Virus genome (UHGV): UHGV-0198113
Strand: one strand, 5' to 3'
DNA length: 39,138 nucleotides
From: a virus
Position numbers and translations under genes: made by a program. This document shows, piece after piece, positions 1-31,870 of the stretch (the first letter of the stretch is position 1; each line of letters starts with the position of its first letter). The notes beneath the pieces were generated by a model that was not told the origin of the DNA, did no database searches, and worked only from the letters and a program-made list of their open reading frames with translations.

Positions 1-3000
1 TGCCAGAACTGATCAGCAACGTTTTCATACGCGACGCGTGAAACGCTCTTATACCCCGCATAAGTTTCCTGGATTGGGATACCTGGCTTATATGCCAGCG
101 CAGAAAGTGAATTCCACTTCTGTGCATCAACATAACCAGAACCTTTTACCGTAGATGCCGCAGGAGCTTTCAACGGTTGGTTAACCAGCGTCTGTAGTGG
201 TCCTGTTTTTCGATCAAACGCCGCCGCTACGTCGTGTTGATCAACCACAGCGGCATGTTCTTCCAGTTCACGAACACGACCAAGACGTTTCACCTTATCG
301 ATATTGATATCAACGATACGTTTGCTGTCCGTTGTGACTGTTCCAACGAACAGCCGAGTCGCATTATCAGGAAGCTGCTCCAGACCTATCTGATACTGTG
401 CAGTTGAGCCTACAACTTCGCCGTGGACGTAGAAGGTTTGATTGGCGTGGTTAGATGGAAATTGATTACTTAAATCTACCGACCACGTTGGAAGCGTATA
501 ACTACTGCTACCAAAATCCAATTTAACTTCTTCCGTTAAATACAGAATCCAACCTTCCGCCGTTTCCACACCGGAAATAATGACCGCTTGACCGCCTGTT
601 GAGAATGTTGTGTCGTTAACAAACTCTGCGGCAGTGTACGCATTACCCGAGCAGAATACACGGTCAGCCTTGGAATAAATCAATGCCATCTTATCCCAAC
701 TGCCCGCGCCCATGTAACACCCGGATTCTGGGTTATGGGCAGGAGCCATCTGACGCAACTGAGACTTACCAGGAACACGAGTCCAACCCGACCCAGGGTC
801 GTAAGTATATTTCGCGGCGTAGCCTAATGCGTTCAAATCACCGATATTCCGAATCGTCAACGTATACGGTAACCAAATACCGAAGTTAACACCATCCGCA
901 GAAGCAAAGATAGGCTGACCCACACGTCGTGTTTTATTACCCGCTTCTTCATTCAAGGACTGATAACTTAAACCGTAGTCCTTATCTAAGAACCAGTCGA
1001 CCAGCTTAAAGGTTGCGGAGTTAAAACGTAGATAACCATTCTCTTTAGATGGGCTCACCATGAAGTAATAGATATCGAGAATACGACGCCCATTATCTAA
1101 GGTTTTCATGCACGAAACTTGTAATAAGTCAAACTCGCACACGGTGTTAATACCCAACATCCAAAGAGCAAATAACGCATTGCCTGTTTGGTGTGCTGCG
1201 CTAATACGTTCATTCGCATAGCCATTAGCTTCGCCTGACGGCGCACCATCGACAATCATTCGAATCATCTTCTGGCGATCAGCTTCTTCTAACGTCAAGC
1301 GTTCTGAAGACAACGCAAAATTACCGTAGATATTCCGGTATGGGAAAGTCTCTGCTTTTGTTAGATACCAACCGTTAAGTTGGCCGTGGCGCTCCTCTGG
1401 CGTCATACACGCAGCCATACAGCTCAACTGCTCGTAAAGTGTAGGATCAACCTCGCGACGGTTGTTATTTGGACCGTATCCGCTGTAACCAGGTACATTG
1501 TACGGCGTGTTCGGGTCAACCTCAACTTCGATTGTGTAACGGTTACGTGGATTAGACAACCAGACTTTGTTCGAGCCTCCAATACCGACAGGGTGAGAAA
1601 GACCGATGGTATAAATAGAACCGCGTCCTTTATCCCATGTAAAAGTCCCTTCACCTGAAGTATTGTTCGGGTTATCGTAACGCAGATAATCGAAAAGCTC
1701 TTTGCCTTGCGTTCCTTTAATAGAAACGTTCGGCATTTGGTCTGCGTCGTTAACTTGCCAGCAGGAAAGCATCATTCCCGTACCGTTAGGTTTTGCAAAC
1801 GTTGCAAAACAACGATTGTTTGCCTGACCACCACCCCACTTGCGACTAGTTTCTACAGTTGAACCGTCCGCGAACGAGAGTGTAGTAGCATCAGCCTTGA
1901 TGGGGAAGCGTTCGGCACCTTCTAACGTAACTTTGCCCGTCAACGTATCGATCGTAAAACTTGTTGCCCATTGACGAAAGTTAATTTGTGAGCCATCAGC
2001 CGCCGCAAACCATACCGTGGGCATATGGTTCACGCGGATCACGCTGTCACGCACCGCGCAAGCATGGTTGCATTCCGGCCCGTGAACAAAGTTATGTCCG
2101 TTAGTCCATTTAGCGCGTGCTTCTGGTGTAAAATACGTAAAGAACTGCCCAGACTGAGACTCCTCAGTTTTTTGACCGATTCGTAAACAGAGGTTATCTC
2201 CGTATTGACCCATTTCGCCTGTTAATGTTACGCGTTCAAATTCTAACGTGGTGCTGGTATACAAATCAGCTTTACGCAAACGCCAAGCCGCCACTGCATA
2301 AGCAGAGTTATTCACCGTAGAACGGAGAAGATAGACGTAATCATCAACCAGCACAACATCGTCGGCTTCTGGCCACGGATTCCAAGTTTGTTCAACGGTT
2401 CCGCTAGGGTTACCGTTACGATAGACAGGCATCGTCACACGACAAACCACGGTGTGTTTGGCGTGGTCCATCGAACCGTTAAACAGCACCAAATACCGGT
2501 TATTGTCGGAGCCCAGGCAAATGATCGCTTCCTGACCACCAATCAAAATCGCTTTTAAAGTTACACCAGGATACTTACTCAGTCCAACAGGATGGTATTT
2601 CACCGAGGTCTGTTGTGGATTTTCAAACGCATTTGACGAGTTGATATCCGCATAACCGTAATAAATAGCTTCTGTACCCGGCACGCCATTAGAAGCATTA
2701 CGTAGCGAGTAGACCTTCCCTTGCTGATAACCAACAACCCCTTTTTGGTAAGACTGGTTCTTTGTAAAGCCTGAATAGTTACCAAGTGCCGGAATTGGTA
2801 GAAAGTTTTTGTTACCAAACTTCGCACCACCTACGGTCCAAGCCGGTAAAATAGTGTTCAGTTTGTCAGTAACTTTCTTGATCTCTTTCGCAAATAACCA
2901 CCCTTGACGCGAAGTGACCGCTTTATCATTAGTAGTGTCTATAGCATCCCACAACTGTAATAAGCCGTCTACCGTCGCACTACCGATCGGTACATTATCC

Positions 3001-4472
3001 AAATCGCCAAACACGTGGGTGTGGTTAGACAATGCTTTGTTCTTTAAAACATTTGTCAGTGCTTTTGTTACTGGTTTGTTAGCCGGACTGGTATTGTCCA
3101 TTTTATCGATGCCGAAATCCGTTTTCGTTAACGTCAATACCATGTTCTCACCGGTCTTAACAAATCCTTTACCGTTAATGGTGTAATCATCATCGACGTA
3201 CAAGTCTAACCGGTCTTTTAATTCAGTAACGGCTTTTTGGGATATTGCTGTACCCAACGCAGCTGATGTTGCGATATTCGTAATAGAGAACAATCCGTAA
3301 ACCGACTCAGACGCCGTAGGGATATTTGCATTTAACGTCAATGGGTTGGATTGTTTCGATGTACCGTACGCTTTCACTGTGTCTGAAGACGAGAAGTACG
3401 CATTAGCTTCCAGCAACGTCACCGATGTTAAGTACATGTTCACCATGTCTGGTGTAACCAGATACACGGAGTTATACACTGGCGCTAAAACATCTTGCTC
3501 GGAGCCAGAGTGTACCCAAAGGGTGTTCAACCCAGCGCTGAACTCAACGGCTAAGCCTGATTCATTGTTGTCCTGGTCAGCTTTAATCACTAATGGTTGT
3601 GGTGACGTAATCAACCACTTATCATTTCGGATACTGATTACATGACCGCCTGCGGTTTTGAACGCCAGTTCTTTACCGTTTGAAGCACGCCAACGACCAT
3701 AAACCGTGCCGAGTGTACGGCCCATCAACTGGTCTACGTCCGACTGCTCAATTCCCGCAGAACCCATCAACGTTGCGAGTTCATCTAACGTTCTGTTGAA
3801 AGCTTTTGTCGCATCTACGGCACGCCCCAACACAGGCAGTGCACCAATGTCTTCAGTCGTGTAGTTGTGAACATTAGGGTTCAAATGGTGCTGATAAAGC
3901 TCTTCGTCAAAAACCTTCTTACCGTTTTCGTAAATCAGATTCGTAACTTCGCTAAAAGCAGCATCCAGTTCAGTGGAACGTTTGATAATCTTTTTACGAA
4001 TATCATCTAATGCTTTTACTACTTCGTCCCTGAGTAGGGCTTCTTCTAAGTTAGCAGGCGGGTCAATAGGCTGTATGACAGGAGCATACGCCATTAATTC
4101 GGACCAATCCACGTTACGCGGATCTTTTAAATCGGTACGAACTAGATACTTGCCAATTTCCGATTGTGGGATACGGTACTGGCGCGCTACACCCAGAATT
4201 TCGTATTCCACCTCAGTGGCAGTCAGTAACATGAACCCGCCGTAAATTTGGTCTTGTTCTGCCTCAGCGAGCTCTTTAAAGTAATAACCTAAATAGTAGT
4301 CCAGACCTTCTATTAAGGTACGACGGCCACCGGCGGCGGACTCGTCAGCAACAGTGAGCTTTAATCCGATACGATAAAAGGGGCCTTCCGGCGGGATGAC
4401 CACGTTAAATCGGTTAGGGTACGTTGACGTATTTAACGTACCGTTAAACAGCGCCGCGTCTTCTCTCGGCAT
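1..4472 (-). CDS. large tail-fibre/tailspike-like structural protein, partial (N-terminal ~1490 codons; C-terminus lies beyond window start)
   Basis: ATG at 4472-4470 preceded by AGGAG (MPREDAALFNG...). Frame spot-checked stop-free at the window start; the only minus-strand track ORFs in this span (1424-1654, 2600-2830) are in another frame. Absent from the ORF track because it has no stop in the window. N-terminus shares the PF(F/Y)...L.V...G.DY motif with the next two genes. Confidence 0.6.
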   Translation of the reverse strand, partial: MPREDAALFNGTLNTSTYPNRFNVVIPPEGPFYRIGLKLTVADESAAGGRRTLIEGLDYYLGYYFKELAEAEQDQIYGGFMLLTATEVEYEILGVARQYRIPQSEIGKYLVRTDLKDPRNVDWSELMAYAPVIQPIDPPANLEEALLRDEVVKALDDIRKKIIKRSTELDAAFSEVTNLIYENGKKVFDEELYQHHLNPNVHNYTTEDIGALPVLGRAVDATKAFNRTLDELATLMGSAGIEQSDVDQLMGRTLGTVYGRWRASNGKELAFKTAGGHVISIRNDKWLITSPQPLVIKADQDNNESGLAVEFSAGLNTLWVHSGSEQDVLAPVYNSVYLVTPDMVNMYLTSVTLLEANAYFSSSDTVKAYGTSKQSNPLTLNANIPTASESVYGLFSITNIATSAALGTAISQKAVTELKDRLDLYVDDDYTINGKGFVKTGENMVLTLTKTDFGIDKMDNTSPANKPVTKALTNVLKNKALSNHTHVFGDLDNVPIGSATVDGLLQLWDAIDTTNDKAVTSRQGWLFAKEIKKVTDKLNTILPAWTVGGAKFGNKNFLPIPALGNYSGFTKNQSYQKGVVGYQQGKVYSLRNASNGVPGTEAIYYGYADINSSNAFENPQQTSVKYHPVGLSKYPGVTLKAILIGGQEAIICLGSDNNRYLVLFNGSMDHAKHTVVCRVTMPVYRNGNPSGTVEQTWNPWPEADDVVLVDDYVYLLRSTVNNSAYAVAAWRLRKADLYTSTTLEFERVTLTGEMGQYGDNLCLRIGQKTEESQSGQFFTYFTPEARAKWTNGHNFVHGPECNHACAVRDSVIRVNHMPTVWFAAADGSQINFRQWATSFTIDTLTGKVTLEGAERFPIKADATTLSFADGSTVETSRKWGGGQANNRCFATFAKPNGTGMMLSCWQVNDADQMPNVSIKGTQGKELFDYLRYDNPNNTSGEGTFTWDKGRGSIYTIGLSHPVGIGGSNKVWLSNPRNRYTIEVEVDPNTPYNVPGYSGYGPNNNRREVDPTLYEQLSCMAACMTPEERHGQLNGWYLTKAETFPYRNIYGNFALSSERLTLEEADRQKMIRMIVDGAPSGEANGYANERISAAHQTGNALFALWMLGINTVCEFDLLQVSCMKTLDNGRRILDIYYFMVSPSKENGYLRFNSATFKLVDWFLDKDYGLSYQSLNEEAGNKTRRVGQPIFASADGVNFGIWLPYTLTIRNIGDLNALGYAAKYTYDPGSGWTRVPGKSQLRQMAPAHNPESGCYMGAGSWDKMALIYSKADRVFCSGNAYTAAEFVNDTTFSTGGQAVIISGVETAEGWILYLTEEVKLDFGSSSYTLPTWSVDLSNQFPSNHANQTFYVHGEVVGSTAQYQIGLEQLPDNATRLFVGTVTTDSKRIVDINIDKVKRLGRVRELEEHAAVVDQHDVAAAFDRKTGPLQTLVNQPLKAPAASTVKGSGYVDAQKWNSLSALAYKPGIPIQETYAGYKSVSRVAYENVADQFW

Positions 4473-4504
4473 CGTAAAGACTCCTACTTTTAAATAAAAT
4501 GGAT

Positions 4505-4530
4505 ACCCCTCCCTTTTTACAGGGAGGGGT
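4505..4530 (-). terminator. stem-loop (10-bp stem ACCCCTCCCT/AGGGAGGGGT) between two minus-strand giant genes; terminator or attenuator
   Basis: Perfect inverted repeat with 6-nt loop; T-rich tract follows on the minus strand (complement of 4480-4504). Confidence 0.4.
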
Positions 4531-4567
4531 TACCTACGGACACATTACTGCCCGCAGGCAGTCTGTC

Positions 4568-13091: not shown

Positions 13092-13158
13092 TATCTACTC
13101 CTATAATCCGTGGGCGTCGAGTTCATACTATGACTTGAATCTATAGAGGAAAAGAGCT

Positions 13159-14472: not shown

Positions 14473-14682
14473 TTAGTCTTTTTTGTAGACGATCGCGTTG
14501 CCGTGCAGTTTGTTGTTACCAGAGATACCGATAACTTTAAATGCGTCACCACCGATTTTCTCGGCTTCAGCAGCCAGTTTACCGGTTACGTGGTCAACGG
14601 TATCACCAAAGGCACTAACGTTACCAATTTTCTTAAACTCTTCTGGGATATGCTCAGCAGAAGAGAACTCTTTAATAGACAT
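14473..14682 (-). CDS. DUF1471 (BhsA/YdgH/McbA-like) small protein, no signal peptide
   Basis: Track ORF; GGAGAG RBS; 'KIGNVSA...AEKIGGDAFKVIGISGNNKLHGNAIVYKK' matches the BhsA-family core as I recall it; in-frame stop 11 codons upstream rules out an N-terminal extension. Confidence 0.65.
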   Translation of the reverse strand: MSIKEFSSAEHIPEEFKKIGNVSAFGDTVDHVTGKLAAEAEKIGGDAFKVIGISGNNKLHGNAIVYKKD

Positions 14683-14891: not shown

Positions 14892-15857
14892 TTACCGTGG
14901 ACCCGAAGTAGGACCGTGTACACCGTCGTGGATGTGTACGCTGAAAGTAATGCCCGCAATAACCGCATCTTTAACCGTAAAGATACCCACACCTTCCCCA
15001 GTACCGCCGTACTTGAAGTTTTTAGCCACTTCAAGATTACCGGTGAATTGTGCTTCATTCCCTTCTTGTTTAAAGTTCGGCGTTTTAAAGGTGGTCGAAC
15101 TCCCCGCTTCCGTTAACCAGGTTTGTGTTTTAAAGGTAACGGATTTCGATGCTTCTGTATTGCGAACTTCGCATTTCTCATTAATCGTTTTTGTTTCCAG
15201 GTTAATAGAACGCTTTGAATAAATGAACGCATCTTCTTTGTTGATGTTCACTTTTGATAGCATCGCATTCTCAAACCCGAGATCATCTTCGACCGAGTTA
15301 ATGTAATACTTGTTCCCTTTATGGTCAACGCATTGCCACGATCCGTTTGCGTTGTCAAACTGGAATAACCACGCCGCTTTCTCGCCATTCACCATACATG
15401 TTCTTAGCGTGATATGTTTGTCAATCGTCGAGACATTCAACACATACGCATTGGACAGGTCATCCGCCATTTGGTTTTCGGGGTCAGCCGACCACGCATA
15501 AACCGCATCTTCTAATCGCTTAACGTTAGCGAAATTCAAATCAATCCAAAAATAAATATCGGTTTTCCCCAAACGTAACAAGATAACGTAGTCTTCTCGT
15601 TTAACGTCAGGGGAATTAATTCGGTTGGAGTTAAACTTCCACCACTTTGCTGTTATCGTGTTACCCGTCTTAATGGTTAGGTTATCTGTTGCACCAGACG
15701 TTTCATGCGTCTTTTCAGTTGCTGAAGAAACAGATTGCACCACAGTAGGGTTAGCAAAGTTGGTTTCAATTGGTATCACTTTTACCCGATCTGTACCACG
15801 GGGTTTGTCTTCCGCGACGATACCAATTGAGAAAAAATCAACACTGGATTTCTCCAT
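14892..15857 (-). CDS. hypothetical protein (321 aa)
   Basis: Track ORF; AAGGAA RBS 7 nt upstream on minus strand. No motif recognised. Confidence 0.7.
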   Translation of the reverse strand: MEKSSVDFFSIGIVAEDKPRGTDRVKVIPIETNFANPTVVQSVSSATEKTHETSGATDNLTIKTGNTITAKWWKFNSNRINSPDVKREDYVILLRLGKTDIYFWIDLNFANVKRLEDAVYAWSADPENQMADDLSNAYVLNVSTIDKHITLRTCMVNGEKAAWLFQFDNANGSWQCVDHKGNKYYINSVEDDLGFENAMLSKVNINKEDAFIYSKRSINLETKTINEKCEVRNTEASKSVTFKTQTWLTEAGSSTTFKTPNFKQEGNEAQFTGNLEVAKNFKYGGTGEGVGIFTVKDAVIAGITFSVHIHDGVHGPTSGPR

Positions 15858-15883
15858 CGGGACGTTCCTTAGATCGGAATTGG

Positions 15884-15908
15884 TTTCAGATATATTTTAC
15901 TTAGGTGA
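15884..15908 (+). promoter_or_regulatory. conserved 25-nt motif TTTCAGATATATTTTACTTAGGTGA (copy 1), candidate phage promoter or regulatory site
   Basis: Near-identical second copy at 20208-20232 (one mismatch); both intergenic and upstream of plus-strand gene blocks. Confidence 0.4.
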
Positions 15909-16243
15909 ATAGGGACTGAAGTGCGAGTTCAGTCCCTACGGACACGTTTCTTTCGAAACGGAGTTACCACGTTATTAGGAAACAGACCAATGTCTACTGA
16001 GAAGAAAGGCGGATTGGACGAAGTCATCGAACAGTTCAAACGCTACAACCCAGCTATTCCTCGGTAATCATAGTATTACTTAAAATTTACAGATTGTCCC
16101 TTTATTCTGCTACTCGGGATACCGGTAGGGGGTAGGGGGCATTATGTATACGGATATAAATAGCGGAGGTATACGTAGTATACCGACATACTCTTCCCAG
16201 AGGAACGTAGTGACTTCCTTATTCCTTTTTAGGAGAATAATCC

Positions 16244-16996
16244 ATGCTGACAGCAGAAGTTTTTGTTAACCAATACTTAGATGAACTCTTTGCTAAGACC
16301 TATTTAGAGATCGCCTCTCCTATCGTTGAAGATTTAGTAGGTTCAAAATACCCTGCTAAATTAGTCGAAATCAAAACGGTTAAGCCTGAAAACGTTCCTA
16401 CTGACGAACCAGAGGATAAATATCGGATTACCGCTTATGCTAATAGCGTATTCAGTATTCTTAACAGCGAAACTGGTGTGATGCTTATTTACAGTATCAT
16501 TACCGAAAGCGATTTTAATTCAGTACGCTACGCTATCGAAAATCTGGCTAACATTGGACCGCTTAGCCATGACCCGACCATTATAACAGAACAGTGGGCA
16601 TTAATGTCTGTATTTGCCCACTTCCCTTTATTCCGCCACGGAATTGCATTAATTCATCGTGAATTTGAAGTACCTTACAATGCGGAACTAACGTTACTGG
16701 GTCCTGGTTTTAATCTCTACCCGTTAAGGGACGATAACGATAAGTTATACGGCGTCCATATCTACTTTAAATGCTTCGAGGAGCTGTACGTTCTTGAGTT
16801 AATTGCTTCGGATATAGTAAAAGAAATCCCAGAAGTAGAAACGATTTCCAGAAATACTCACGTGATCGAAATCAATCCCAACGATCCGATGTTGAAATAC
16901 CGTGATGAAGTCGATATACTTAGCATCGCTACTGTTAGAGGCTGGGGCGCTGCTGAAATTACCAATAACCGCTTGTTATTGTTAAAACACGCGTAA
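16244..16996 (+). CDS. hypothetical protein (250 aa); paralog-family member 1
   Basis: Track ORF; AGGAGA RBS; C-terminus '...VRGWGAAEITNNRLLLLKHA' is a diverged copy of the GW...G(K)QLLF module. Confidence 0.7.
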   Translation: MLTAEVFVNQYLDELFAKTYLEIASPIVEDLVGSKYPAKLVEIKTVKPENVPTDEPEDKYRITAYANSVFSILNSETGVMLIYSIITESDFNSVRYAIENLANIGPLSHDPTIITEQWALMSVFAHFPLFRHGIALIHREFEVPYNAELTLLGPGFNLYPLRDDNDKLYGVHIYFKCFEELYVLELIASDIVKEIPEVETISRNTHVIEINPNDPMLKYRDEVDILSIATVRGWGAAEITNNRLLLLKHA

Positions 16997-17023
16997 GTAA
17001 AAAAACCGAAAAGGAGAATAATC

Positions 17024-17578
17024 ATGTATCACGCTAAATTGAAAAATGAAATCGTTCAATCTCTTGAAAAGGGTGTTGGTGAACACTACTTTACTTGTCC
17101 TTATACCGTACTGACTAATACCATTATCTCACCGGACGTGATGGTAGTGGGTGTAACCGTACAAGCGGTGGGAGAAACACCGATGTTCCGCAGAATTCCA
17201 CGTAACACGGATATCTCTTTCAGAAGTGGGTTTACGTCTTACCTTCGAAGCTTACTGGGAGATACCGCTTGGAAAACAGGCAGTTTCTTCCACGAAGGGA
17301 AAACATCTGTGTTGGTTTATAAGGAAGGTGTTAAGTATTCGGTTGATTTTCTCTTAGCGCGTCTGTATAGCTTCTTTCCAAGCCCTACTGATTGCACGCC
17401 AGACAATCCGGGTAAGCTGTTAAATCAAGACGAAGCTGAAGCGTTGTTTGAACAACTTCGGAAAGAACATTGTAATGCTGACGACTGGGAAACCCTCATC
17501 GCTGTCGCTAAAGCGCATGGCTGGTATACCGTGCGTAAAGTAGGTAAACAATTGTTGTTCTTAGCTTATAATGTTTAA
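17024..17578 (+). CDS. hypothetical protein (184 aa); paralog-family member 2
   Basis: Track ORF; AAGGAGA RBS; C-terminus 'AHGWYTVRKVGKQLLFLAYNV'; internal related copy 'AWKTGSFFHEGKTSVLVYK'. Confidence 0.75.
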   Translation: MYHAKLKNEIVQSLEKGVGEHYFTCPYTVLTNTIISPDVMVVGVTVQAVGETPMFRRIPRNTDISFRSGFTSYLRSLLGDTAWKTGSFFHEGKTSVLVYKEGVKYSVDFLLARLYSFFPSPTDCTPDNPGKLLNQDEAEALFEQLRKEHCNADDWETLIAVAKAHGWYTVRKVGKQLLFLAYNV

Positions 17579-17589
17579 GGGATGATATC

Positions 17590-18717
17590 ATGCATATCTA
17601 CAATAACTCACCGTCGCATAGACTCTATCTTGAATTACTTTTCGAAGATTACAAGAAAGGTGTACCGAAAATACTACTCAATATCCCGTGTGCTACGCAA
17701 AATGATTTGTTCGGGCGCGTTTTTGGTTGCACCGTTAACGCTTTGCCAGAACCAATCTGTGCACCCGTGGATATTTGTGTTTTCGACGAACGCATTGAGG
17801 ATTTTCAATTCACTCTATACGCAAATGAGTCGTTACCCTACGACAAACTTTACGTCCGTGAGTTAAAATCAAATCAACGTTTAATGTATCGTGTTTACCC
17901 ATCGGAGAAATTCTCATTACTGGAGTATAAAATCAGGCGGCTGCCTTACGAGGGTGTGAAATTACTCGACCAGCAGGATATGACTTTTCTGGAAGAACTC
18001 TGTGGATTTGAAATTGAGAAGATTCACGTAATTCAAGAAATATCCCAAAACGTACCTACACGCCGCACCCCTAACGGTGGGTTTCCGTACGAGTTCATCG
18101 ACACAGGACTAAGGCTCGTAACCGAATTTAACGACGTAATGTATTACGCAGTGTGTATTGAACGTAAAGTAGTGGAGAAAGAAATGACAAGTACATTGAA
18201 AGAAGAATTAGCACAATTCATTCGTGACGTCGAAGAGAAAAGCAAGAGCGATCACATTTTCTCACAACGCTATCCTGAACTTATTGACGAAACCACCGAT
18301 AGTGTCGTCGACGGTATACGCATTTTCCCAAGTGGTCTTGCAATTTACCGACTGCCTAGCGTTAACCAGCTTAAAGTCATGGAAATGCTAAAAGACGTTT
18401 TAGCAGAAGCGGGTTGGGAATATCGTTTCGATTGCAATTTCGAAGGGATGGCGTTATTCCTTACAAAGAAAAATTATACGTTGTCAATCGATCTACCCAA
18501 AAGTCAATATTACAGTTTCTTCCCGAAAGCGGATGATCGCACTGAAAAAGAACCTGCGTTGTTACTTGATGCGGCAGAATCCAATACGCTAATGATGCAA
18601 TTGCGGTCGATTGACAAAAAGTTAAATACCGGTCATTTAACGACGATCGGTAAAGATTACGGTTGGAAATCTGTCGAATCGTACGGCAGTCAGCTGTTGT
18701 TTGTTGCTGACCTTTAA
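17590..18717 (+). CDS. hypothetical protein (375 aa); paralog-family member 3
   Basis: Track ORF; C-terminus 'DYGWKSVESYGSQLLFVADL'; internal copy 'AGWEYRFDCNFEGMALFLTK'. Confidence 0.75.
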   Translation: MHIYNNSPSHRLYLELLFEDYKKGVPKILLNIPCATQNDLFGRVFGCTVNALPEPICAPVDICVFDERIEDFQFTLYANESLPYDKLYVRELKSNQRLMYRVYPSEKFSLLEYKIRRLPYEGVKLLDQQDMTFLEELCGFEIEKIHVIQEISQNVPTRRTPNGGFPYEFIDTGLRLVTEFNDVMYYAVCIERKVVEKEMTSTLKEELAQFIRDVEEKSKSDHIFSQRYPELIDETTDSVVDGIRIFPSGLAIYRLPSVNQLKVMEMLKDVLAEAGWEYRFDCNFEGMALFLTKKNYTLSIDLPKSQYYSFFPKADDRTEKEPALLLDAAESNTLMMQLRSIDKKLNTGHLTTIGKDYGWKSVESYGSQLLFVADL

Positions 18718-18784
18718 TAAACGAAAATACACTTTCTCTAACTGCCGCGCTTTAGTCGCGGCTTTTGTTAAGAAGGAAATAGAA

Positions 18785-19558
18785 ATGAAAATCCATTTAG
18801 ATGCACTTTTTGAATCAGAACACTACGTGATTAATGGCTCGCTGGCCTCGTTGTTGCTGGACGATAAATATAATCGAACACTCCAATTGCGGTCCGTCGA
18901 ATCCGCACCAACAGAAGACGTAGGTCTTTACCAACGTGTCAATCATACCCGTGGGGAATATCGCCGATATAAACCCGACTCACTCAGCGTTAAGCTCTGG
19001 CAACTAAGTACAGGCAAAGTATTAAGTTACCACACGGTTGGCCTGTATTACGTTGAACGTGCACATCTGTGGTTAGAAGAAGTTAAAGAGATGGATTATG
19101 ATCTCTTAAGCAAAAGACTGCGCGATAACAATAACAGCTTACCGATACGTAATTATTTCTCCACAGTCGAAAATAGTCGTTGTTTCGTTTCCCGTAAATC
19201 CATGATATTGCCTGGGGTCGAAGTTCAGACGACATTAAAAGACGCGGTCGTGAAGAAAATCTTTCATGAGTCTAAACATGTCGGTTTTCGTATTTATCTA
19301 ACGCACAAAAGGCCATTTACCGTGATTAGTGTTGTTAACGTACCTGAAGGATCATCAATCATTCAAGAACTCCCTGACGCCCGTGACCGTTGCCCTAATG
19401 AGCCGCTCTACTTAATGTCAGGAACAAAATCAGCCTCGTTGATCTCTCGTTACAGCATGATAGATGTTGTTGACGCTGCTATGAAGCTAGGTTGGAAAGA
19501 AGTGCAGCAACATGGTAAACAGTTGCTGTTTATTGCAGATGTAAAACTTAATCAATAG
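18785..19558 (+). CDS. hypothetical protein (~257 aa); paralog-family member 4
   Basis: Track ORF 18701-19558 trimmed to the first ATG with an AAGGA RBS (track start is a TTG inside the previous gene); C-terminus 'KLGWKEVQQHGKQLLFIADVKLNQ'; internal copy 'LWQLSTGKVLSYH'. Confidence 0.7.
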   Translation: MKIHLDALFESEHYVINGSLASLLLDDKYNRTLQLRSVESAPTEDVGLYQRVNHTRGEYRRYKPDSLSVKLWQLSTGKVLSYHTVGLYYVERAHLWLEEVKEMDYDLLSKRLRDNNNSLPIRNYFSTVENSRCFVSRKSMILPGVEVQTTLKDAVVKKIFHESKHVGFRIYLTHKRPFTVISVVNVPEGSSIIQELPDARDRCPNEPLYLMSGTKSASLISRYSMIDVVDAAMKLGWKEVQQHGKQLLFIADVKLNQ

Positions 19559-19570
19559 TGAGGTGGTACC

Positions 19571-20152
19571 GTGTACCGATTAATAGAAATGCGAAAAGAC
19601 GTATGGTTGGAAAACCTCGTCAATGGGGAGCTAGAAGGAATTGAGCTTTCCTTACCCGAAAAGGCGGACACGGTACTGGCCTTTCTGGTAAAACAGAAAA
19701 GTAGTCTGGACCCGATAGGTATCTTTGCTGTAGAACACACCGATCCTCGTGGCCCTACGCTACGTTGTATCTGCTGCGCTATGGATAAGATTCCTGCATC
19801 GCCGTTTGTGCAATACGCACGACGTAAAGCACCAGCGGGTGGACTTTTGTGGGTATCGTTACTGCCTGACGTAAGGATCATTCGGGACGACTACTCGGCG
19901 TTTGTACAAGCCAGTAAAATCAACCTGTATAATCCGAGTGCTGAACGTACGGATATGCCCTTCAGTATTACGTTAGACGACGACGGAACGCAGGAGGGTA
20001 TCGAGTCCATTACGGAATTGGTTAACTCCTATCCAGTTGCCACTATCGAGTTAGAAAACCCGAAGCGTTTACCGCTCGGAGACTTACTCGAGTGGATAGA
20101 ACTGAACACCGAGTTTCTGGTAGGTTCTCGTTTGTATCGGTTCGATGTTTGA
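19571..20152 (+). CDS. hypothetical protein (193 aa), GTG start; possible diverged paralog
   Basis: Track ORF; GAGGTGG RBS 7 nt before GTG; C-terminus 'LEWIELNTEFLVGSRLYRFDV' loosely resembles the module. Confidence 0.6.
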   Translation: MYRLIEMRKDVWLENLVNGELEGIELSLPEKADTVLAFLVKQKSSLDPIGIFAVEHTDPRGPTLRCICCAMDKIPASPFVQYARRKAPAGGLLWVSLLPDVRIIRDDYSAFVQASKINLYNPSAERTDMPFSITLDDDGTQEGIESITELVNSYPVATIELENPKRLPLGDLLEWIELNTEFLVGSRLYRFDV

Positions 20153-20157
20153 ACGCA

Positions 20158-20188
20158 GTGGGAGCATTGCTCCCACTTTCTTTTTTGT
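20158..20188 (+). terminator. rho-independent terminator closing the paralog operon
   Basis: 8-bp stem GTGGGAGC/GCTCCCAC with 3-nt loop, followed by TTTCTTTTTT. Confidence 0.7.
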
Positions 20189-20207
20189 TCAGTACGATTA
20201 GAAATAA

Positions 20208-20232
20208 TTTCAGATATATATTACTTAGGTGA
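20208..20232 (+). promoter_or_regulatory. conserved 25-nt motif TTTCAGATATATATTACTTAGGTGA (copy 2)
   Basis: Identical to copy 1 except for one A/T; lies between a terminator and the secreted-protein cassette, about 48 nt upstream of the ATG at 20281. Confidence 0.4.
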
Positions 20233-20280
20233 GAGTTACGATTAACTCTTTTAACCTGTTAACCTTTAAGGAGTATTTCA

Positions 20281-20736
20281 ATGAAAACTTTTATCGCATT
20301 CTTAGTAACCCTTTTAACTTTCGGTCTCAATAACGCTTACGCCGCAATCGGAAGCTGGGAAGGACTTCAAAGTCCGGGAAATGCTGTTTACGAAATCGAA
20401 GACGAAAATGGGAACAGCTTGTCTATCAACTGCGATACCGCAACGGCTAATCGTAAGTTTTACGGTCGCATGGTTTGGTATTACGGTGAACCGGTCGGTT
20501 CAACTAATGCCGAAGACAACGAAATGAGTATTGTCGTAAACGGCAAAAACTATATCATTCCCACTATTGACGGCAGCGACAAAGCAGAAAAAGCTTGGGT
20601 TGCCTTCGCTAATGCTATCGCTAATGCAAAAAGCTTCGGTGTGGCTATCAACGGTAACGAAGCCGCTAACTTTATTGTAGATGGTGAGCGTCTGCCCGAA
20701 ACTTTCTTTAAGAACTGTGGACATAGCCGTCCTTGA
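20281..20736 (+). CDS. small exported protein with signal peptide (151 aa)
   Basis: Track ORF; AAGGAG RBS; N-terminal hydrophobic signal 'MKTFIAFLVTLLTFGLNNAYAA'; two Cys; paralog of the next gene. Confidence 0.8.
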   Translation: MKTFIAFLVTLLTFGLNNAYAAIGSWEGLQSPGNAVYEIEDENGNSLSINCDTATANRKFYGRMVWYYGEPVGSTNAEDNEMSIVVNGKNYIIPTIDGSDKAEKAWVAFANAIANAKSFGVAINGNEAANFIVDGERLPETFFKNCGHSRP

Positions 20737-20773
20737 TAAATAACTTAATTTTTAAACTAAAAGGAATATAACC

Positions 20774-21244
20774 ATGAAACTGTCTAACATCTTCTTAGCT
20801 ATCGTTTTAACTGTAAGCGCCACTGCTGCACAGGCCATTCCGAACATGTGGGGTAGTGGCTTTGCAATGGGTGAAACCGAGTATGGTATCGATAACGGTG
20901 GATGGGGTATTACCATTAGCTGTACCGGTAATCCAGATGAAAACAACATTTTACCACACAAGATCTTTATCTCTAAAGATGGTAATGTGGTGGCCAACTC
21001 GGAAGATAACGACATTAGTTTCGTTATCGATGGTGAAGAGTTCTGGGGTGTAGTTCCTGACGGCACACGTAATACCGACAATACTTGGGTTAGTTTTGTA
21101 AAAGCAATCTCTACAGCAACTGAGTTTGACTTATACCTCGACCAGAAAAAGGTTGCTACCTTTAACCCATCAGCCAAAAACGTTAAGAAAGTGATGGACG
21201 GTAACTTCCTCGAATCTTGCTGGAACACCGAATACGAACAATAA
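20774..21244 (+). CDS. small exported protein with signal peptide (156 aa), paralog of 20281-20736
   Basis: Track ORF; signal 'MKLSNIFLAIVLTVSATAAQA'; shared segments (I-x-C, SEDN/AEDN, VVNG/VIDG, WV[AS]F, C near the C-terminus). Confidence 0.8.
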   Translation: MKLSNIFLAIVLTVSATAAQAIPNMWGSGFAMGETEYGIDNGGWGITISCTGNPDENNILPHKIFISKDGNVVANSEDNDISFVIDGEEFWGVVPDGTRNTDNTWVSFVKAISTATEFDLYLDQKKVATFNPSAKNVKKVMDGNFLESCWNTEYEQ

Positions 21245-23065: not shown

Positions 23066-23094
23066 CGACTTGTTATACCTAAAGGAGAATTATC

Positions 23095-23571
23095 ATGCAA
23101 CTGTCTAACGTCTACCAAGCAGCACAATTTCATCATGACCTGTCCGCCAAACCTGAACAGATTCGCCACAACCTGACAGTGGCTTGGAAACTATTACGTA
23201 TTGCAGAAGCTGCTCGTATAGGCGACCAGTCAACAATCATCGACACAGTACGTACATTACATCCTGTCGACCTGGAAACAATTTGGACGTTCGATTTAAC
23301 CCGAATTTATCACCGCCGATTTAATGCAGCCGTTGACGCAATTCGTCCTTATTTCCATTACTTACGGACAACGCGAGAAAGCGATACTGCACTCGAATGG
23401 GTATTGGTACAAAGTGTATGGAGCGACTACATTTATCTCCTTTCTTTAGAGACGGGTGAATGTATCGTTGCTAACGAAGTCTTTTCAAGTAACGCGGAAA
23501 TGTACCGCTCCTACGCAACGATTAAAGGTGAATCCCAGCCTATTTTATCACTCACGCACTTAGGGCTCTAA
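23095..23571 (+). CDS. hypothetical protein (158 aa)
   Basis: Track ORF; AAGGAGA RBS; single-gene unit flanked by terminators. Confidence 0.7.
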   Translation: MQLSNVYQAAQFHHDLSAKPEQIRHNLTVAWKLLRIAEAARIGDQSTIIDTVRTLHPVDLETIWTFDLTRIYHRRFNAAVDAIRPYFHYLRTTRESDTALEWVLVQSVWSDYIYLLSLETGECIVANEVFSSNAEMYRSYATIKGESQPILSLTHLGL

Positions 23572-24320: not shown

Positions 24321-26825
24321 ATGCTAAAAGTTGAACGTATTGTACTCAAAGGTTTTACGGGGATGGGATTGCACGAAATTGAAACGTTCGATTTCACTAT
24401 CCAGTCACCGACAACGATTATCCTGGGTGGGAACGGTTGTGGGAAGACCAGTTTACTGTCCGTATTTTTGCCCTTAGCTCCGGCTAAAACAGAATTCAGG
24501 GATGGGGGTTCTTACACGAATTATTGTTTAGTCGGCGATCAACGTTACCGTTTCAAAGTTGCCCGTAAAGGCAACTCGTTGGTTTGCGATATTGAGAATC
24601 TCACTACGGGAACGAAGATTGTCGAGCAAGGTAACGCAAAGGTTTACAATTCACGCGTTGAAGAAATCACTGGTATTACGAAAGAAATTAAAGAATTGTT
24701 AAACGGTGAGGTGTTGTTAACGGACGCGGGAACGGAATTACGTCGTAAATGGTTTTACCGTTTAAGTACCTCTGACCTTACTTACGCGCTAGGGTTCTAT
24801 CAGAGATTGCGGAAAAACCTCACCGTCTTAAACGGTGGCATTGAAATTACCAGTCGTAAGATCGCAGAGTTACGAACACGTGTTATTGAAAATGAAGAAG
24901 AACGTCAACAGTTAGCGGTAAGATTAAAAGGCTTGGAATCGGATTTACGCGAACTGAACCGACAAATCGAACAGCTACCGGGTTTAAATCGTGGCGTTAC
25001 TATCGAATCAATCCAGGCGTTATTAAACGGCTTAGGTCCAACTATCGACGCAATATTACAACATCGTGGTGGTTTGCCTACCGACGAACAGATACTGAAC
25101 GCACGACACAATGAAGCCACAGCACGCGAAGCTGTCGTTTCAGCAGAAACGGAAGTATCAATGTTGAATAAAGATCTGTCGTTATTGATGGACGAGTCAA
25201 CGCGACAGGATTACCTGATGCGCAATCACGAGGGTCTCAAGAACACTCTCGCACGTTTACGTGAAGTGCTTACCAAATGGGACACCGAGCATCTCTTTCC
25301 TGGACTGTTTAGTGAGAGTGCGAATTTAGACCAGCTACGTGCTGCAACCGATGCACGCGTTTGGGGCCAACGACTGGGAACAACACTGGACGCCATTCAT
25401 TCAACCGAAAAGCTCAACGTTTTGGAAGAACGTCTACTGGTGATGGATCAGAAGACCGCAGGATTGCGAGATAGACTCCAGCGCGTAGAGAATGTTTTAC
25501 AAAACTTGAACCACGAACGAAATCACTATCTGGAAACAGCAGAAGTAGATTGCCCGCAATGTCGGTTTAAATTTCGACCTGGGGTTACGCGTTCTTTGTC
25601 TGAACTTGAAACCTCGATTAGAGGCCAACAGCAACAACGTACGGAGCTTCAAACACAGTTAGACAGTATATTACGCGATCGTGTCGAACTGGAATCTGAT
25701 GTAACGTATATGCGTCAGGTTCGTGAAATCGTGTTGACGTACTCAAAGGACCCGGTTTTAAGCATGTTCTTTAAGTGTCTACAAGAACGTAATGTCTTTA
25801 CAGAATCACGCGAACAGTTCGGAAGTCTCTGCGCGGCTTTTGACAGTGAGCTGTATTCTGCTATTGAATATCATGAAACCCGTCAACGGTTAGTGAAGGC
25901 AGAAAAAGAATGGCAAGATGCGGTAGCTGCTGTGGGTAACGTCGATGGTGCTTTACAACAGAAAATTGCTTTCCAACAATCGCGTTTAGGTAAAGCCACA
26001 GAAACGCTCTCAGTGCGTCGTAGAGAGCACGAGTTAGCTAATACGACACTTACCTATCTAGAGAGCGTTAAACGTGCTATAGACGATTTTAGCGCGTTAT
26101 TCGAACGGTTAGAGAATGACGTTAAGGTTACTTTGACAAACACAGTTGTCGAAGAACTCTTACGGGCACGAGAAGGGAAACTGGATGCGTTTACGACAGC
26201 ACGTGAGCGTTATCGTCAAATGGAAAGTGAACTGAATCAGCTCAATACGTTGGAACGCGAACTTGCGGATTTACAAGCCCAGCAGTTTAATAACAAATTG
26301 ATGATTCAGGCGTTCTCGCCAGAAAAAGGTGTACTCAGAAAGTATTTTTACAATGCTATCGTCAGAATCACAGAGTTAATGACGCGCTATATCGAACAAG
26401 TCTGGACGTACCCCATGCGAGTTATGCCTTGTGATCTCACCGACGGTGATTTGGATTATACTTTTCCTGTCCAACTAAAAACACATCCTGAACCCGTTCC
26501 TGATGTGCGTAAAGGGTCTAAGGCACAACGTGCTATATTCAATCTGATGTTCAGACTGACTGCGTATAAAGCGTTGAAATTACATCAGTTTCCTTTGCTA
26601 TTGGATGAACCCTCAGAGGGTATGGACGAAGAACACCGTAATAACCTGGTTGGTTTTATTAAAACGTTAGCAAACTCAGGGGAGTTCTCGCAGTTACTGG
26701 TGGTCTCCCACGAAGCTGAAGTCCATTCTAAACTTAACGAAGCATCGTACTGTGTCATTGAACCGGAAGGGGTGACATTACCTGCGGTGTATAACGAGGG
26801 AGTAAAAATTGTTTATGCAAACTGA
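24321..26825 (+). CDS. Rad50/SbcC-like SMC-family ATPase with coiled coil and CxxC zinc hook (~834 aa)
   Basis: Track ORF 24303-26825 trimmed to the ATG 5 nt after GGAGG. Walker A 'GGNGCGKTSLL'; mid-protein 'CPQC' hook within predicted coiled coil; C-terminal Walker B/D-loop 'LLLDEPSEGMDEE' and 'LLVVSHE'. Confidence 0.8.
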   Translation: MLKVERIVLKGFTGMGLHEIETFDFTIQSPTTIILGGNGCGKTSLLSVFLPLAPAKTEFRDGGSYTNYCLVGDQRYRFKVARKGNSLVCDIENLTTGTKIVEQGNAKVYNSRVEEITGITKEIKELLNGEVLLTDAGTELRRKWFYRLSTSDLTYALGFYQRLRKNLTVLNGGIEITSRKIAELRTRVIENEEERQQLAVRLKGLESDLRELNRQIEQLPGLNRGVTIESIQALLNGLGPTIDAILQHRGGLPTDEQILNARHNEATAREAVVSAETEVSMLNKDLSLLMDESTRQDYLMRNHEGLKNTLARLREVLTKWDTEHLFPGLFSESANLDQLRAATDARVWGQRLGTTLDAIHSTEKLNVLEERLLVMDQKTAGLRDRLQRVENVLQNLNHERNHYLETAEVDCPQCRFKFRPGVTRSLSELETSIRGQQQQRTELQTQLDSILRDRVELESDVTYMRQVREIVLTYSKDPVLSMFFKCLQERNVFTESREQFGSLCAAFDSELYSAIEYHETRQRLVKAEKEWQDAVAAVGNVDGALQQKIAFQQSRLGKATETLSVRRREHELANTTLTYLESVKRAIDDFSALFERLENDVKVTLTNTVVEELLRAREGKLDAFTTARERYRQMESELNQLNTLERELADLQAQQFNNKLMIQAFSPEKGVLRKYFYNAIVRITELMTRYIEQVWTYPMRVMPCDLTDGDLDYTFPVQLKTHPEPVPDVRKGSKAQRAIFNLMFRLTAYKALKLHQFPLLLDEPSEGMDEEHRNNLVGFIKTLANSGEFSQLLVVSHEAEVHSKLNEASYCVIEPEGVTLPAVYNEGVKIVYAN

Positions 26826-26994
26826 TTGGTTCCGTCGTTCGATGAGCGCGGCGGGATTTGGCTTTATGGTCATTTTGGCAATACTTTACGTCATGTTTTG
26901 CGTGGTAATGATTTTATGGGTAGTTTCATCGTATTCGATTAAACTATTCTGGGGTTCGATTTGGCGTCAACGCGAATGCGAGTGGCGGAATTAG
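26815..26994 (+). CDS. small hydrophobic membrane peptide (~59 aa)
   Basis: Track ORF 26809-26994 trimmed to first ATG; TM segment 'FGFMVILAILYVMFCVVMILWVV'; overlaps the end of the ATPase gene (possible coupling); weak RBS. Confidence 0.4.
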   Translation: MQTDWFRRSMSAAGFGFMVILAILYVMFCVVMILWVVSSYSIKLFWGSIWRQRECEWRN

Positions 26995-27005
26995 GAGAGG
27001 GAATT

Positions 27006-27116
27006 ATGATTGAAGGGGTTCTGCTAACGCTAGGTGCGTTGTGGTTGATCGGTAAAGGTTTAAACTGGTTAATTAAACGACACGGCTGGGCGTTCGAAGG
27101 TTCGACATTCAAATAA
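27006..27116 (+). CDS. small membrane peptide (36 aa)
   Basis: Not in track (under 60 aa). AGGAGAGGG RBS 6 nt upstream; 'MIEGVLLTLGALWLIGKGLNWLIKRHGWAFEGSTFK'; followed by hairpin GTACCCTC/GAGGGTAC. Confidence 0.4.
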   Translation: MIEGVLLTLGALWLIGKGLNWLIKRHGWAFEGSTFK

Positions 27117-27163
27117 TCCAGAACGTACCCTCTGTAAGGAGGGTACTAACAGGAACAGAAAAG

Positions 27164-27292
27164 ATGACCTCGATAAATACTACGAATGCGGCGATCTCTG
27201 CATTATACGATGCGGAGCTTACATGGGGCGGGATGCTAATTACCGCCGCCATATTAGCCGCCGCAGCATTCGTCATTGCGCGTTGGTTTTAA
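27164..27292 (+). CDS. small membrane peptide (42 aa)
   Basis: Not in track. 'MTSINTTNAAISALYDAELTWGGMLITAAILAAAAFVIARWF' has a C-terminal TM helix; weak RBS; followed by a T-rich tract. Confidence 0.35.
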   Translation: MTSINTTNAAISALYDAELTWGGMLITAAILAAAAFVIARWF

Positions 27293-27325
27293 CTTTTTAC
27301 TTTTTTGCGTCTCTAAGGTTTGCAA

Positions 27326-30300: not shown

Positions 30301-30340
30301 TACCCCTACTCTTAACGGAGTAGGGGTACTTTTATTTTCA
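30301..30340 (+). terminator. rho-independent terminator
   Basis: 11-bp perfect stem TACCCCTACTC/GAGTAGGGGTA, 6-nt loop, followed by CTTTTATTTTCATTT. Confidence 0.8.
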
Positions 30341-30360
30341 TTTCCTAAAGGAGCAAAAGC

Positions 30361-31829: not shown

Positions 31830-31832
31830 AAG

Positions 31833-31870
31833 TTACCCTACTCCTTCGGGAGTAGGGTAATTCTTTTTTT
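31833..31870. terminator. bidirectional rho-independent terminator with C(UUCG)G tetraloop
   Basis: 12-bp stem TTACCCTACTCC/GGAGTAGGGTAA, TTCG loop, T8 on plus and T-rich on minus; between convergent genes. Confidence 0.85.

Follow-up and report, generated by a model that had tools for sequence, protein, structure and literature searches.

This analysis concerns a stretch of 39,138 nucleotides from the virus genome UHGV-0198113, here called the window, and within it the 386-bp gap at 15858-16243 that separates two divergent genes. Leftward virion genes, the nearest of them a baseplate gene, lie on one side of the gap and rightward genes on the other. An initial annotation had described the gap as packed with motifs, namely a 25-nt motif, two hairpins, a 25-codon open reading frame (ORF), a G-rich tandem, GTATAC palindromes and an octamer of the T4 late promoter type, and had taken their density for a regulatory hub. 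All of these features were recovered, with their coordinates, when the sequence was re-read (Table 1). The proposal that the region is regulatory and sits at the junction of the leftward virion genes and the rightward genes also holds, in view of a multi-copy promoter motif and covarying hairpins. The gap is a genuine regulatory region that joins a known kind of promoter to one undescribed conserved element. The most conspicuous motif is an addition to a well-known promoter family, and the most interesting part is the element, which is present in a single copy.

Table 1. Features in and around the divergent gap (window coordinates; RBS, ribosome-binding site)
Feature	Positions	Strand	Remarks
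Baseplate/spike gene	14892-15857	minus	start at 15857; phrog_3216 baseplate assembly protein, E 1.9e-113
RBS AAGGAACG of baseplate gene	15863-15870	minus	read from sequence
Early (virion RNA polymerase) promoter motif TTTCAGATATATTTTACTTAGGTGA	15884-15908	plus	multi-copy; published consensus
Hairpin 1	15911-15937	plus	10-bp stem, 7-nt loop; directly after promoter motif; initially 15912-15936
Hairpin 2, CGTTTC-TTTC-GAAACG	15945-15960	plus	kept in relatives that retain the micro-ORF
25-codon micro-gene, allele A MSTEKKGGLDEVIEQFKRYNPAIPR	15990-16067	plus	RBS ~15977-15981, AGGA 9 nt before start
Start of ancestral spacer	16069-16090	minus	TATG 16072 to 16069; equivalent of GTAAAAAA is TTTAC 16086-16090 (plus)
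G5-TA-G5 (TAGGGGGTAGGGGG)	16126-16139	plus	first block of element
Hairpin P2, TTATGT-ATACGG-ATATAA	16142-16159	plus	overlaps TATAAATA and first GTATAC
CGGAG, hairpin P3 (GGTATAC-GTA-GTATACC, 16168-16184), CGAC	16164-16187	plus	flanks invariant, stem lineage-specific
Pyrimidine tract TTCCTTATTCCTTTTT	16215-16230	plus	consensus N-TCCTT(T)ATTC-TTTT; degenerate first copy 16188-16198
First rightward gene	16244-16996	plus	RBS AGGAG and start codon at 16231-16246
Second cassette	20160-20250	plus	terminator hairpin and T-run 20160-20190; motif 20208-20232; hairpin GAGTTACGATTAACTC 20233-20248; RBS; gene at 20281

Judged by its sequence, the window is from an uncultured jumbo phage akin to SPN3US and phiEaH2, and the whole of it appears to correspond to about 145-185 kb of SPN3US. 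A megablast search of the region at the DNA level gave no match of near-identity among 50,697 phage records. The baseplate gene is the sole part of the region that can be aligned at the DNA level, with 68-76% identity to its phiEaH2 and SPN3US counterparts; over all comparisons of this gene with theirs the identity is 62-76%. A related baseplate gene was found at 12 IMG/VR loci and 15 metagenome loci (individual relatives are cited below by L numbers). At 13 of these loci the baseplate protein is 94-100% identical to that of the window, and they represent the window's own uncultured clade, known from metagenomes. Several multisubunit RNA polymerase genes, including beta-subunit genes, are annotated in SPN3US, and this places the window phage among the phiKZ-related phages. 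The 39-kb window itself carries no RNA polymerase gene; the syntenic SPN3US has several beta-subunit genes. Phages related to phiKZ transcribe with their own virion and non-virion RNA polymerases, and in phiKZ and AR9 transcription by these multisubunit enzymes is independent of the host polymerase (PMC7598289).

Two units make up the gap. Positions 15870-16068 are an insertion of about 200 bp that is confined to the window clade and contains the early promoter, the hairpins and the micro-gene. The remainder, 16069-16243, aligns with the entire spacer upstream of the baseplate gene in distant relatives from at least nine lineages. The order of blocks in this spacer is TCATA(C/T)TA, TTTTTTAC, an interval of 31-43 nt (mostly 35-37), the G-runs, a variable segment, CGGAG-hairpin-CGAC and N-TCCTT(T)ATTC-TTTT. 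In the distant relatives 15-25 nt separate TCATA from the start codon of the baseplate gene, and in the window clade the insert of about 200 bp stands between them. The early motif also changes sides. It is 5' of the element in the window clade and 3' of it in SPN3US, EaH2, L012, Phobos, Derbicus and CR5, where it either follows a 105-codon gene (SPN3US and EaH2) or comes directly after the element (the other four).

These alignments show a history of insertions and deletions in the gap, as read from present-day sequences, and a mosaic origin is very probable. To the explanation as a whole, in which an early cassette lies beside an ancestral spacer, we assign a probability of about 0.6. Because the gap is a mosaic of an insertion and an older spacer, the density of motifs does not call for a designed hub: a promoter and micro-gene specific to one clade have been inserted beside a conserved spacer. 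We infer all transcription starts and their timing, the strand of the element's RNA and the function of the element.

The single-copy element

The element spans 16126-16230 and is laid out as G5-N2-4-G5, a variable segment (P2), CGGAG, a hairpin (P3), CGAC and a pyrimidine tract. Homologs occur in SPN3US, STsAS, phiEaH2/Asesino, Machina, ChrisDB/Caitlin, Kwan/Wellington, Phobos/Derbicus/CR5 and pEa_SNUABM_29. The sequences compared show both its conservation and its single-copy status. A covariance model built on 13 of 25 sequences has a single match in the window (16120-16219, 73 bits) and likewise a single match in 240 kb of SPN3US (the record minus its last 413 bases). BLAST places the element at one position per record in 34 of 35 records. 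No description of it was found in Rfam or in the literature searched. At E values up to 10, the Rfam search of 15850-16300 returned one chance miRNA match only, and the tRNA scan found nothing.

The G-rich tandem that had been singled out initially is the first block of the element. It is unique in the window (one G5-N1-4-G5 versus 0.09 expected), although this frequency is not significant on its own since 7 of 100 shuffles contained at least one. Its conservation is what stands out, as a regular-expression scan finds G4-6-N2-4-G5-6 at the corresponding position of each of the 25 distinct relatives with the element.

The stem of P3 differs from lineage to lineage. It is GGTATAC/GTATACC in the window, GGTATCC/GGATACC in SPN3US, GGTACTC/GAGTACC in STsAS, GGTACCC/GGGTACC in pEa_SNUABM_29, GGTAGC/GCTACC in Machina, GGTGAC/GTCACC in EaH2, GGAG/CTCC in ChrisDB and GTCT/AGAC in Kwan. 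In pEa_SNUABM_11 it is GTC/GAC, with both partners of one pair deleted. All 53 alignment cells pair and five of the seven pairs are changed on both sides, compared with 21-58% pairing in slid controls; this count comes from a hand alignment made from the outside of the stem inward, and is to that extent fitted to the stem. Alignment with MAFFT followed by RNAalifold gives the same picture. Stem length ranges from 2 to 7 bp and loop length from 3 to about 11 nt. Comparative evidence thus shows covariation in P3, as it does in hairpin 1 of the insertion (below). The free variation of the stem with complementarity kept, the variable lengths and the invariant flanks indicate that P3 is a nucleic-acid hairpin that is read along with its flanks, and not a palindromic operator. 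The GTATAC palindromes of the initial annotation have to be seen in this light. The local inverted repeat at 16168-16184 is real and shows compensatory change, but the hexamer itself is at chance frequency in the window (11 versus 9.7 expected). As a repeated binding site it fails, because the third copy at 16146 is not conserved and the repeat pair (16169, 16178) swaps its sequence while keeping complementarity.

Segment P2 is variable. Its equivalents are strong in ChrisDB, pEa_SNUABM_4, Caitlin, L023 (Machina-type), SPN3US and pEa_SNUABM_11, where they include 1-4 G.U pairs and reach z scores of -2 to -4.4. The P2 fold favours the plus over the minus strand, with a difference of 7-10 kcal/mol in L009 and L023 and of 1-5 kcal/mol in the others. 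The fold of the whole element is likewise better on the plus strand, by 4 to 17 kcal/mol in the 13 lineages tested. Because the G.U pairs of P2 favour the plus strand, the element is taken as a rightward RNA that starts 5' of the T(N)TG found after the G-runs.

Our best guess is therefore a plus-strand leader or small RNA. The element would be transcribed rightward as a structured leader or small RNA, a phage factor would recognize the stem along with its invariant flanks, CGGAG and CGAC, and the RNA would end in the TCCTTTTT tract. That the element is a rightward RNA has slightly less than even odds. The fuller proposal is more tentative still: the element and its homologs may be an undescribed single-copy structured RNA of about 100-130 nt, with a non-early promoter near TTTTTTAC and flanks read by a protein, that controls the boundary between virion genes and variable genes. 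If true, whether as an RNA operator or a small RNA, it would be among the very few conserved regulatory RNAs known in the family. A conserved single-copy non-coding element with a covarying hairpin is directly testable, and SPN3US is genetically tractable.

The closest likeness is to the small RNAs of 201phi2-1 and phiKZ, such as sRNA005 upstream of the tail gene gp277/gp182 (PMC11512511). These too are short structured segments that adjoin a virion gene, hold their position across genera and have a U-rich end, with the transcription of the window element being only proposed. The neighbouring genes differ: the window gene is a homolog of phiKZ gp164 and not of gp182, and there is no sequence similarity. 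An identification of the element with the small RNA upstream of phiKZ gp182 or 201phi2-1 gp277 was rejected for this reason. The element is absent from the homologous junction of phiKZ and 201phi2-1.

Several further candidates were tried and set aside. An upstream pyrimidine tract as an alternative pairing partner, as in an attenuator, does no better than shuffles. Sequestration of the Shine-Dalgarno sequence by the pyrimidine tract yields only 4-bp helices. A conserved small ORF within the element was rejected on either strand, as neither the ATG in CGACAT nor the ORF from 16144 is conserved. The 3' part of the element is partly duplicated at 16188-16230 in the window and in the phiEaH2/Asesino lineages (GAC-N-TCCTTATTC occurs twice). 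The segment between the duplicated copies, AGGAACG(Y)AGTGAC, resembles the hairpin region of the ChrisDB/Caitlin type.

The early promoter unit and the spacer promoters

The 25-nt motif of the initial annotation is real and belongs to a multi-copy type of promoter. Its second copy in the window, at 20208-20232, has one mismatch; no copies (0.00) were expected against the two found, and none of 100 shuffles reached two. The AT-rich core is ATATTTTAC at 15892-15900 and ATATATTAC at 20216-20224, both of the TATATTAC type, and close relatives have the ATATATTAC core at the locus where the window has ATATTTTAC. By direct comparison the motif agrees with the published consensus TTTCARRYAKATATTATYWAAGTGWA / TATATTAC (PMC7058600, Table 2). 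It also fits the extended consensus common to OBP, N1M2 and 201phi2-1 (TTTCARR..ATATTAY..GTG). The predicted early promoters in that source are TBYAWWWWWTTTCARRYAKATATTATYWAAGTGWA for N1M2, those of OBP, TTTRARR-BTATATTACDWHDGTG for 201phi2-1 and TATATTAC for phiKZ (PMC7058600, Table 2). Motifs of this kind lie about 10 nt upstream of mapped early 5' ends in phiKZ and 201phi2-1 (PMC8244752, PMC11512511), and according to a review a motif of this sort precedes the early operons of every jumbo phage that encodes its own RNA polymerases (PMC7598289).

An exact search of IMG/VR viral contigs with the 22-mer CAGATATATWTTACTTARGTGA gave 28 matching stretches. Long contigs of the window clade carry several each, and others are in phiEaH2 and SPN3US contigs. 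A reading frame on the same strand follows just downstream in all 37 unique motif contexts. Copies away from the baseplate locus usually share one arrangement on a single strand: a GC hairpin and T-run come first, then some 25 AT-rich bases and the motif, and after these a short hairpin, an RBS and a start codon. The short hairpin typically begins at the last GA(G) of the motif. A significantly stable hairpin stands directly after the motif in 33 of 41 distinct contexts (mean z -3.0), an RBS and start codon lie within 100 nt in 36 of the 41 (most often about 46-62 nt downstream), and an upstream T-run is present in 24. SPN3US has nine matches at up to five mismatches; all are on the plus strand, and each immediately precedes a gene of that strand. 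Neither sigma-70-like sites (in 15600-16500) nor terminator-like sites (in 15858-16243) were found, and the hairpins at 15911-15937 and 16168-16184 lack an adjacent T-run.

These sequence comparisons show that the motif is identical with the family consensus and that its multiple copies are co-oriented with the genes they precede. We hold with high confidence that 15884-15908 is a rightward early promoter of the phiKZ family, its timing and start site being read from the likeness. The points in common with phiKZ-related early promoters are the extended consensus TTTCAGATAT(A/T)TTACTTAGGTGA, about ten copies in the one complete genome examined (SPN3US), and an intergenic position co-oriented with the next operon (both copies in the window, all nine in SPN3US), mostly with an upstream terminator. 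The copy in the gap differs in having ATATTTTAC instead of ATATATTAC, in lacking the upstream terminator, in standing back-to-back with a late structural gene at 26 nt from its start codon, and in that a 25-codon ORF comes first. The result is a usable early-promoter model for the SPN3US/Erwinia/metagenomic jumbo-phage clade, with the motif, an obligatory 5' stem-loop and a fixed leader to the RBS (the starts are predicted). It can be applied to the annotation of early operons in uncultured relatives.

The early promoter would read rightward, with a predicted start at the 3' end of the motif or just after it. Its transcript would open with the stem-loop at 15911-15937, then encode the 25-residue peptide, and probably continue into the rightward operon at 16244-20152 to end at the terminator at 20160-20190. 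The rightward operon of the window clade would thus have an early promoter and then the older promoter of the spacer. AR9 and phiKZ gene 54 offer known examples of such dual control (PMC7598289, PMC8244752).

Hairpin 1, noted initially with a shorter stem, is real, shows compensatory changes and extends to 10 bp. It folds with -17.0 kcal/mol (z -5.8 versus shuffles). Over 11 window-clade variants 98% of the cells pair, and three of the ten pairs are changed on both sides; the arm occurs as GGGAC, GGAGC, GGGGT or GGGGC, each with a matching 3' arm. It presumably forms a stem-loop at the very 5' end of the early transcript, and any antisense leader of the baseplate gene would fold here as well. 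An assignment of its strand from wobble pairs was rejected: the two informative mismatches both favour the minus strand, which is not significant. The loop (15921-15927) occurs in both orientations, as GTGCGAG and CTCGCAC and as GTACCAG and CTGGTAC (including L005, L006 and L017), which points to small inversions at a perfect palindrome. For hairpin 2, relative L018 retains the pairing through a U.G wobble on the plus strand, and no compensatory changes were seen.

The 25-codon ORF looks like a real gene, as it has three alleles, all of 25 codons: A (Table 1), B MFAEQKDGIEEVVRLFRHYSPYLPR and C MSTKKESLNELLKRLKDYTPFSTFR. A and B differ at 32 of 78 nt, have 44% of residues in common and show seven synonymous codon changes; length, start, stop and hydrophobic pattern are equal, and each has an RBS. 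Allele C is frameshifted in an A-run, by +1 (A7) or -1 (A5), in two metagenome contigs (L014 and L016). A run of A6 would restore an intact 25-codon ORF, and the frameshifts may be homopolymer sequencing error or real phase variation. The micro-gene is deleted in four relatives, three of which (L004, L017, L020) retain a C-terminal remnant. It was seen at the baseplate-upstream locus only. From the equal length of the three alleles and the deletion in four relatives, we consider it likely to be a real but dispensable small gene.

In several respects these units recall the promoter-early stem-loop (PeSL) elements of T4-type phages (PMC2839356, PMC4122927). There too, short units of terminator and early promoter are repeated around the genome, flank small variable genes and are subject to indels and replacements between close relatives. 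The counterparts here are the presence, loss, allele swap and frameshift of the micro-ORF and the motif that switches sides of the element. A composite of terminator and promoter is found at 20160-20232 and in the 24 contexts with an upstream T-run, and not at the 15884 copy. The promoters differ in being of the virion RNA polymerase type, not host sigma-70, and the stem-loop stands downstream as well as upstream of the promoter. Recombination at the units of the window clade is suggested by comparison of sequences. Promoter units that move around a fixed landmark together with tiny genes would amount to PeSL-like genome plasticity in nucleus-forming phages.

A conserved terminator motif, CCCTACTCC-loop-GGAGTAGGG with a T-run, is present at 30304-30343 and 31818-31870. 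It is also found upstream of early promoters in several relatives, and recalls the conserved terminators described for phiKZ and 201phi2-1. Three genes beyond the second early promoter are nearly identical in their RBS and in the stretch that codes for the N terminus (AAAGGAG..ATGAAA(C/A)T.., at 20256-20306, 20749-20799 and 23070-23120), which suggests that they encode paralogous small proteins with signal-peptide-like N termini.

The ancestral spacer begins at 16069-16090, which aligns with TCATA(C/T)TA..TTTTTTAC of SPN3US, EaH2, ChrisDB, Kwan and Phobos. The 180-bp spacer of SPN3US has no early motif upstream of gp092, and so the spacer must supply the promoters for both the baseplate gene and gp092. 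The late consensus of phiKZ is T-3ATG+1 (PMC7598289). The spacer has a single minus-strand TATG, at 16069-16072, which aligns with TAGTATGA of the relatives; as a 4-mer it is weak evidence, and it is a doubtful candidate for the late promoter of the baseplate gene. On the rightward side TTTTTTAC is the best candidate for a promoter core, since its distance from the G-runs changes little between lineages. It does not recur as a promoter motif in the window (one copy versus 4.9 expected). A similar ACTATGA/TAGTATGA pair occurs in another divergent spacer, at 13120-13135. That spacer (13092-13158, 67 bp) lies between two virion genes and has overlapping TATG on both strands (TTCATACTATGAC); these are possibly back-to-back late promoters of the phiKZ type.

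Competing explanations

The element could act as DNA, as the core of a divergent promoter for the non-virion RNA polymerase, as an operator or as an extruded hairpin. As such a promoter core it would start rightward transcription at the T(N)TG immediately behind the G-runs, and the G-runs themselves would serve as an upstream element. Hairpin-form promoters are used by the virion RNA polymerase of phage N4. The blocks G5-N-G5, CGGAG, CGAC and TCCTT are invariant in sequence, P3 is all Watson-Crick as expected if both DNA strands must pair, and two promoters are required in the spacer. T(A/C/T)TG follows the G-run by 1-3 nt in most lineages and resembles the late T-3ATG+1 of phiKZ, and the non-virion RNA polymerase of AR9 reads the template strand and can use single-stranded DNA (PMC7598289). 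However, the inner positions of P3 vary yet stay complementary, and its length varies, which is the mark of base pairing and not of protein contacts. P2 spans the T(N)TG and is good only on the plus strand, through its G.U pairs, which argues for a start upstream of P2. Position -2 of the would-be TATG is A, C or T, whereas phiKZ requires all four bases, and no further pair of G-run and T(N)TG exists in the window or in SPN3US. We regard a role as DNA as unlikely. Still less credit can be given to a replication origin or R-loop primer site, with a G-rich RNA hybridized to a C-rich template where transcription diverges. R-loop origins downstream of promoters occur in T4 and ColE1. The element is single-copy and conserved across genera, its G-runs are on the non-template strand, and the local strand switch coincides with a local minimum of cumulative GC skew. 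In SPN3US, however, skew tracks gene orientation and has its global extremes at 1 kb and 201 kb; no AT-rich unwinding element or iterons were found, and the homologous junction of phiKZ and 201phi2-1 is only about 60 bp long and lacks the element. An origin is thus very improbable.

The model of the initial annotation, a designed hub with a T4-type late promoter at 16155-16162 and GTATAC palindromes for a dimeric regulator, is hardly credible. The octamer TATAAATA is identical to the T4 late promoter consensus, and three GTATAC do lie within 40 bp. The octamer is at chance frequency (2 versus 2.02 expected), like the hexamer, and its other copy is inside a giant minus-strand coding ORF. It is kept in the immediate clade only, with unrelated sequence in its place in SPN3US, EaH2, ChrisDB and others, and the palindrome stem differs per lineage (TATAC, TATCC, TACTC, TACCC, TAGC, TGAC, others). 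It would also need the wrong transcription machinery, as this family uses its own multisubunit RNA polymerases and not the host polymerase with a gp55-type factor (PMC7598289). An alternative for the left half of the gap takes the 25-nt motif for a repeat that is mobile or a site of recombination, and the hairpin that follows for a terminator. The side on which the motif stands relative to the element varies between lineages, it marks insertion and deletion boundaries, and the hairpin loop is flipped between relatives. The copies nevertheless keep a strict orientation with downstream genes and a fixed RBS distance, and most have an upstream terminator. Consensus motifs with which the motif is identical have been validated as early promoters of phiKZ and 201phi2-1 (PMC8244752, PMC11512511, PMC7058600), the hairpin has no T-run after it and the terminator scan is empty here. 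There is very little chance that it is a mobile repeat.

Several observations weigh against the preferred account of an early cassette beside an ancestral spacer that yields a rightward RNA. Every start site in the window clade is a prediction. The 15884 copy lacks the upstream terminator typical of the cassette and runs antisense to the sequence that immediately precedes the baseplate RBS. Hairpin 1 has two single mismatches that read as A.C on the plus strand and would be G.U on the minus strand, so that this hairpin could serve a leftward transcript. Close relatives of types C and D, such as L014 and L004, do not have the TATG at 16069-16072, which weakens the assignment of a baseplate promoter. 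Within the element, P2 is weak in the window (-1.2 kcal/mol) and absent in the EaH2 and Phobos lineages. P3 has no wobble pair in its 53 cells and therefore does not reveal the strand. Taken whole, the window's element does not fold significantly better than shuffles (z -1.49; 15 of 200 shuffles equal it), and no match at the Rfam gathering score was found over the whole window. The G-runs and the pyrimidine tract pair no better than the G-runs do with shuffled tracts. A long helix between them (P1), for which RNAalifold has 93% of cells paired, was rejected because shuffled tracts pair equally and the covariation is an alignment effect.

The surrounding genes

The order of the leftward genes, the baseplate gene included, matches that of SPN3US and is syntenic with gp093-gp099 (the rightward small genes are outside this comparison). 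The homolog of the baseplate gene in phiKZ is gp164. In phiKZ and 201phi2-1 (L069/L068) the baseplate homolog is back-to-back with an SbcC-like gene, with about 60 bp between them, whereas about 7.5 kb of small genes separate the two in the SPN3US clade. This difference indicates that the rightward block of the window is a clade-specific expansion. The first rightward gene has no matches in Pfam or PHROG.

The 386-bp gap is the largest in a rough gene map except for 26826-27319, and the latter is occupied by small membrane-protein ORFs. Three small ORFs at 26816-27290, syntenic with SPN3US gp076-gp079, encode peptides of about 35-60 residues that are hydrophobic and membrane-like. A giant minus-strand ORF at 1-4560, of at least 1509 codons, is open at the left edge of the window. 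Together with genes of 1396 and 1440 codons it forms a block of very large virion proteins. Adjoining the baseplate gene, 14473-14682 (minus) encodes a 69-residue protein that matches phrog_8068. Its homologs are annotated as DUF1471 in SPN3US and as a BhsA-like stress protein in Kwan, and a small protein of this bacterial type is unexpected within a virion gene block.

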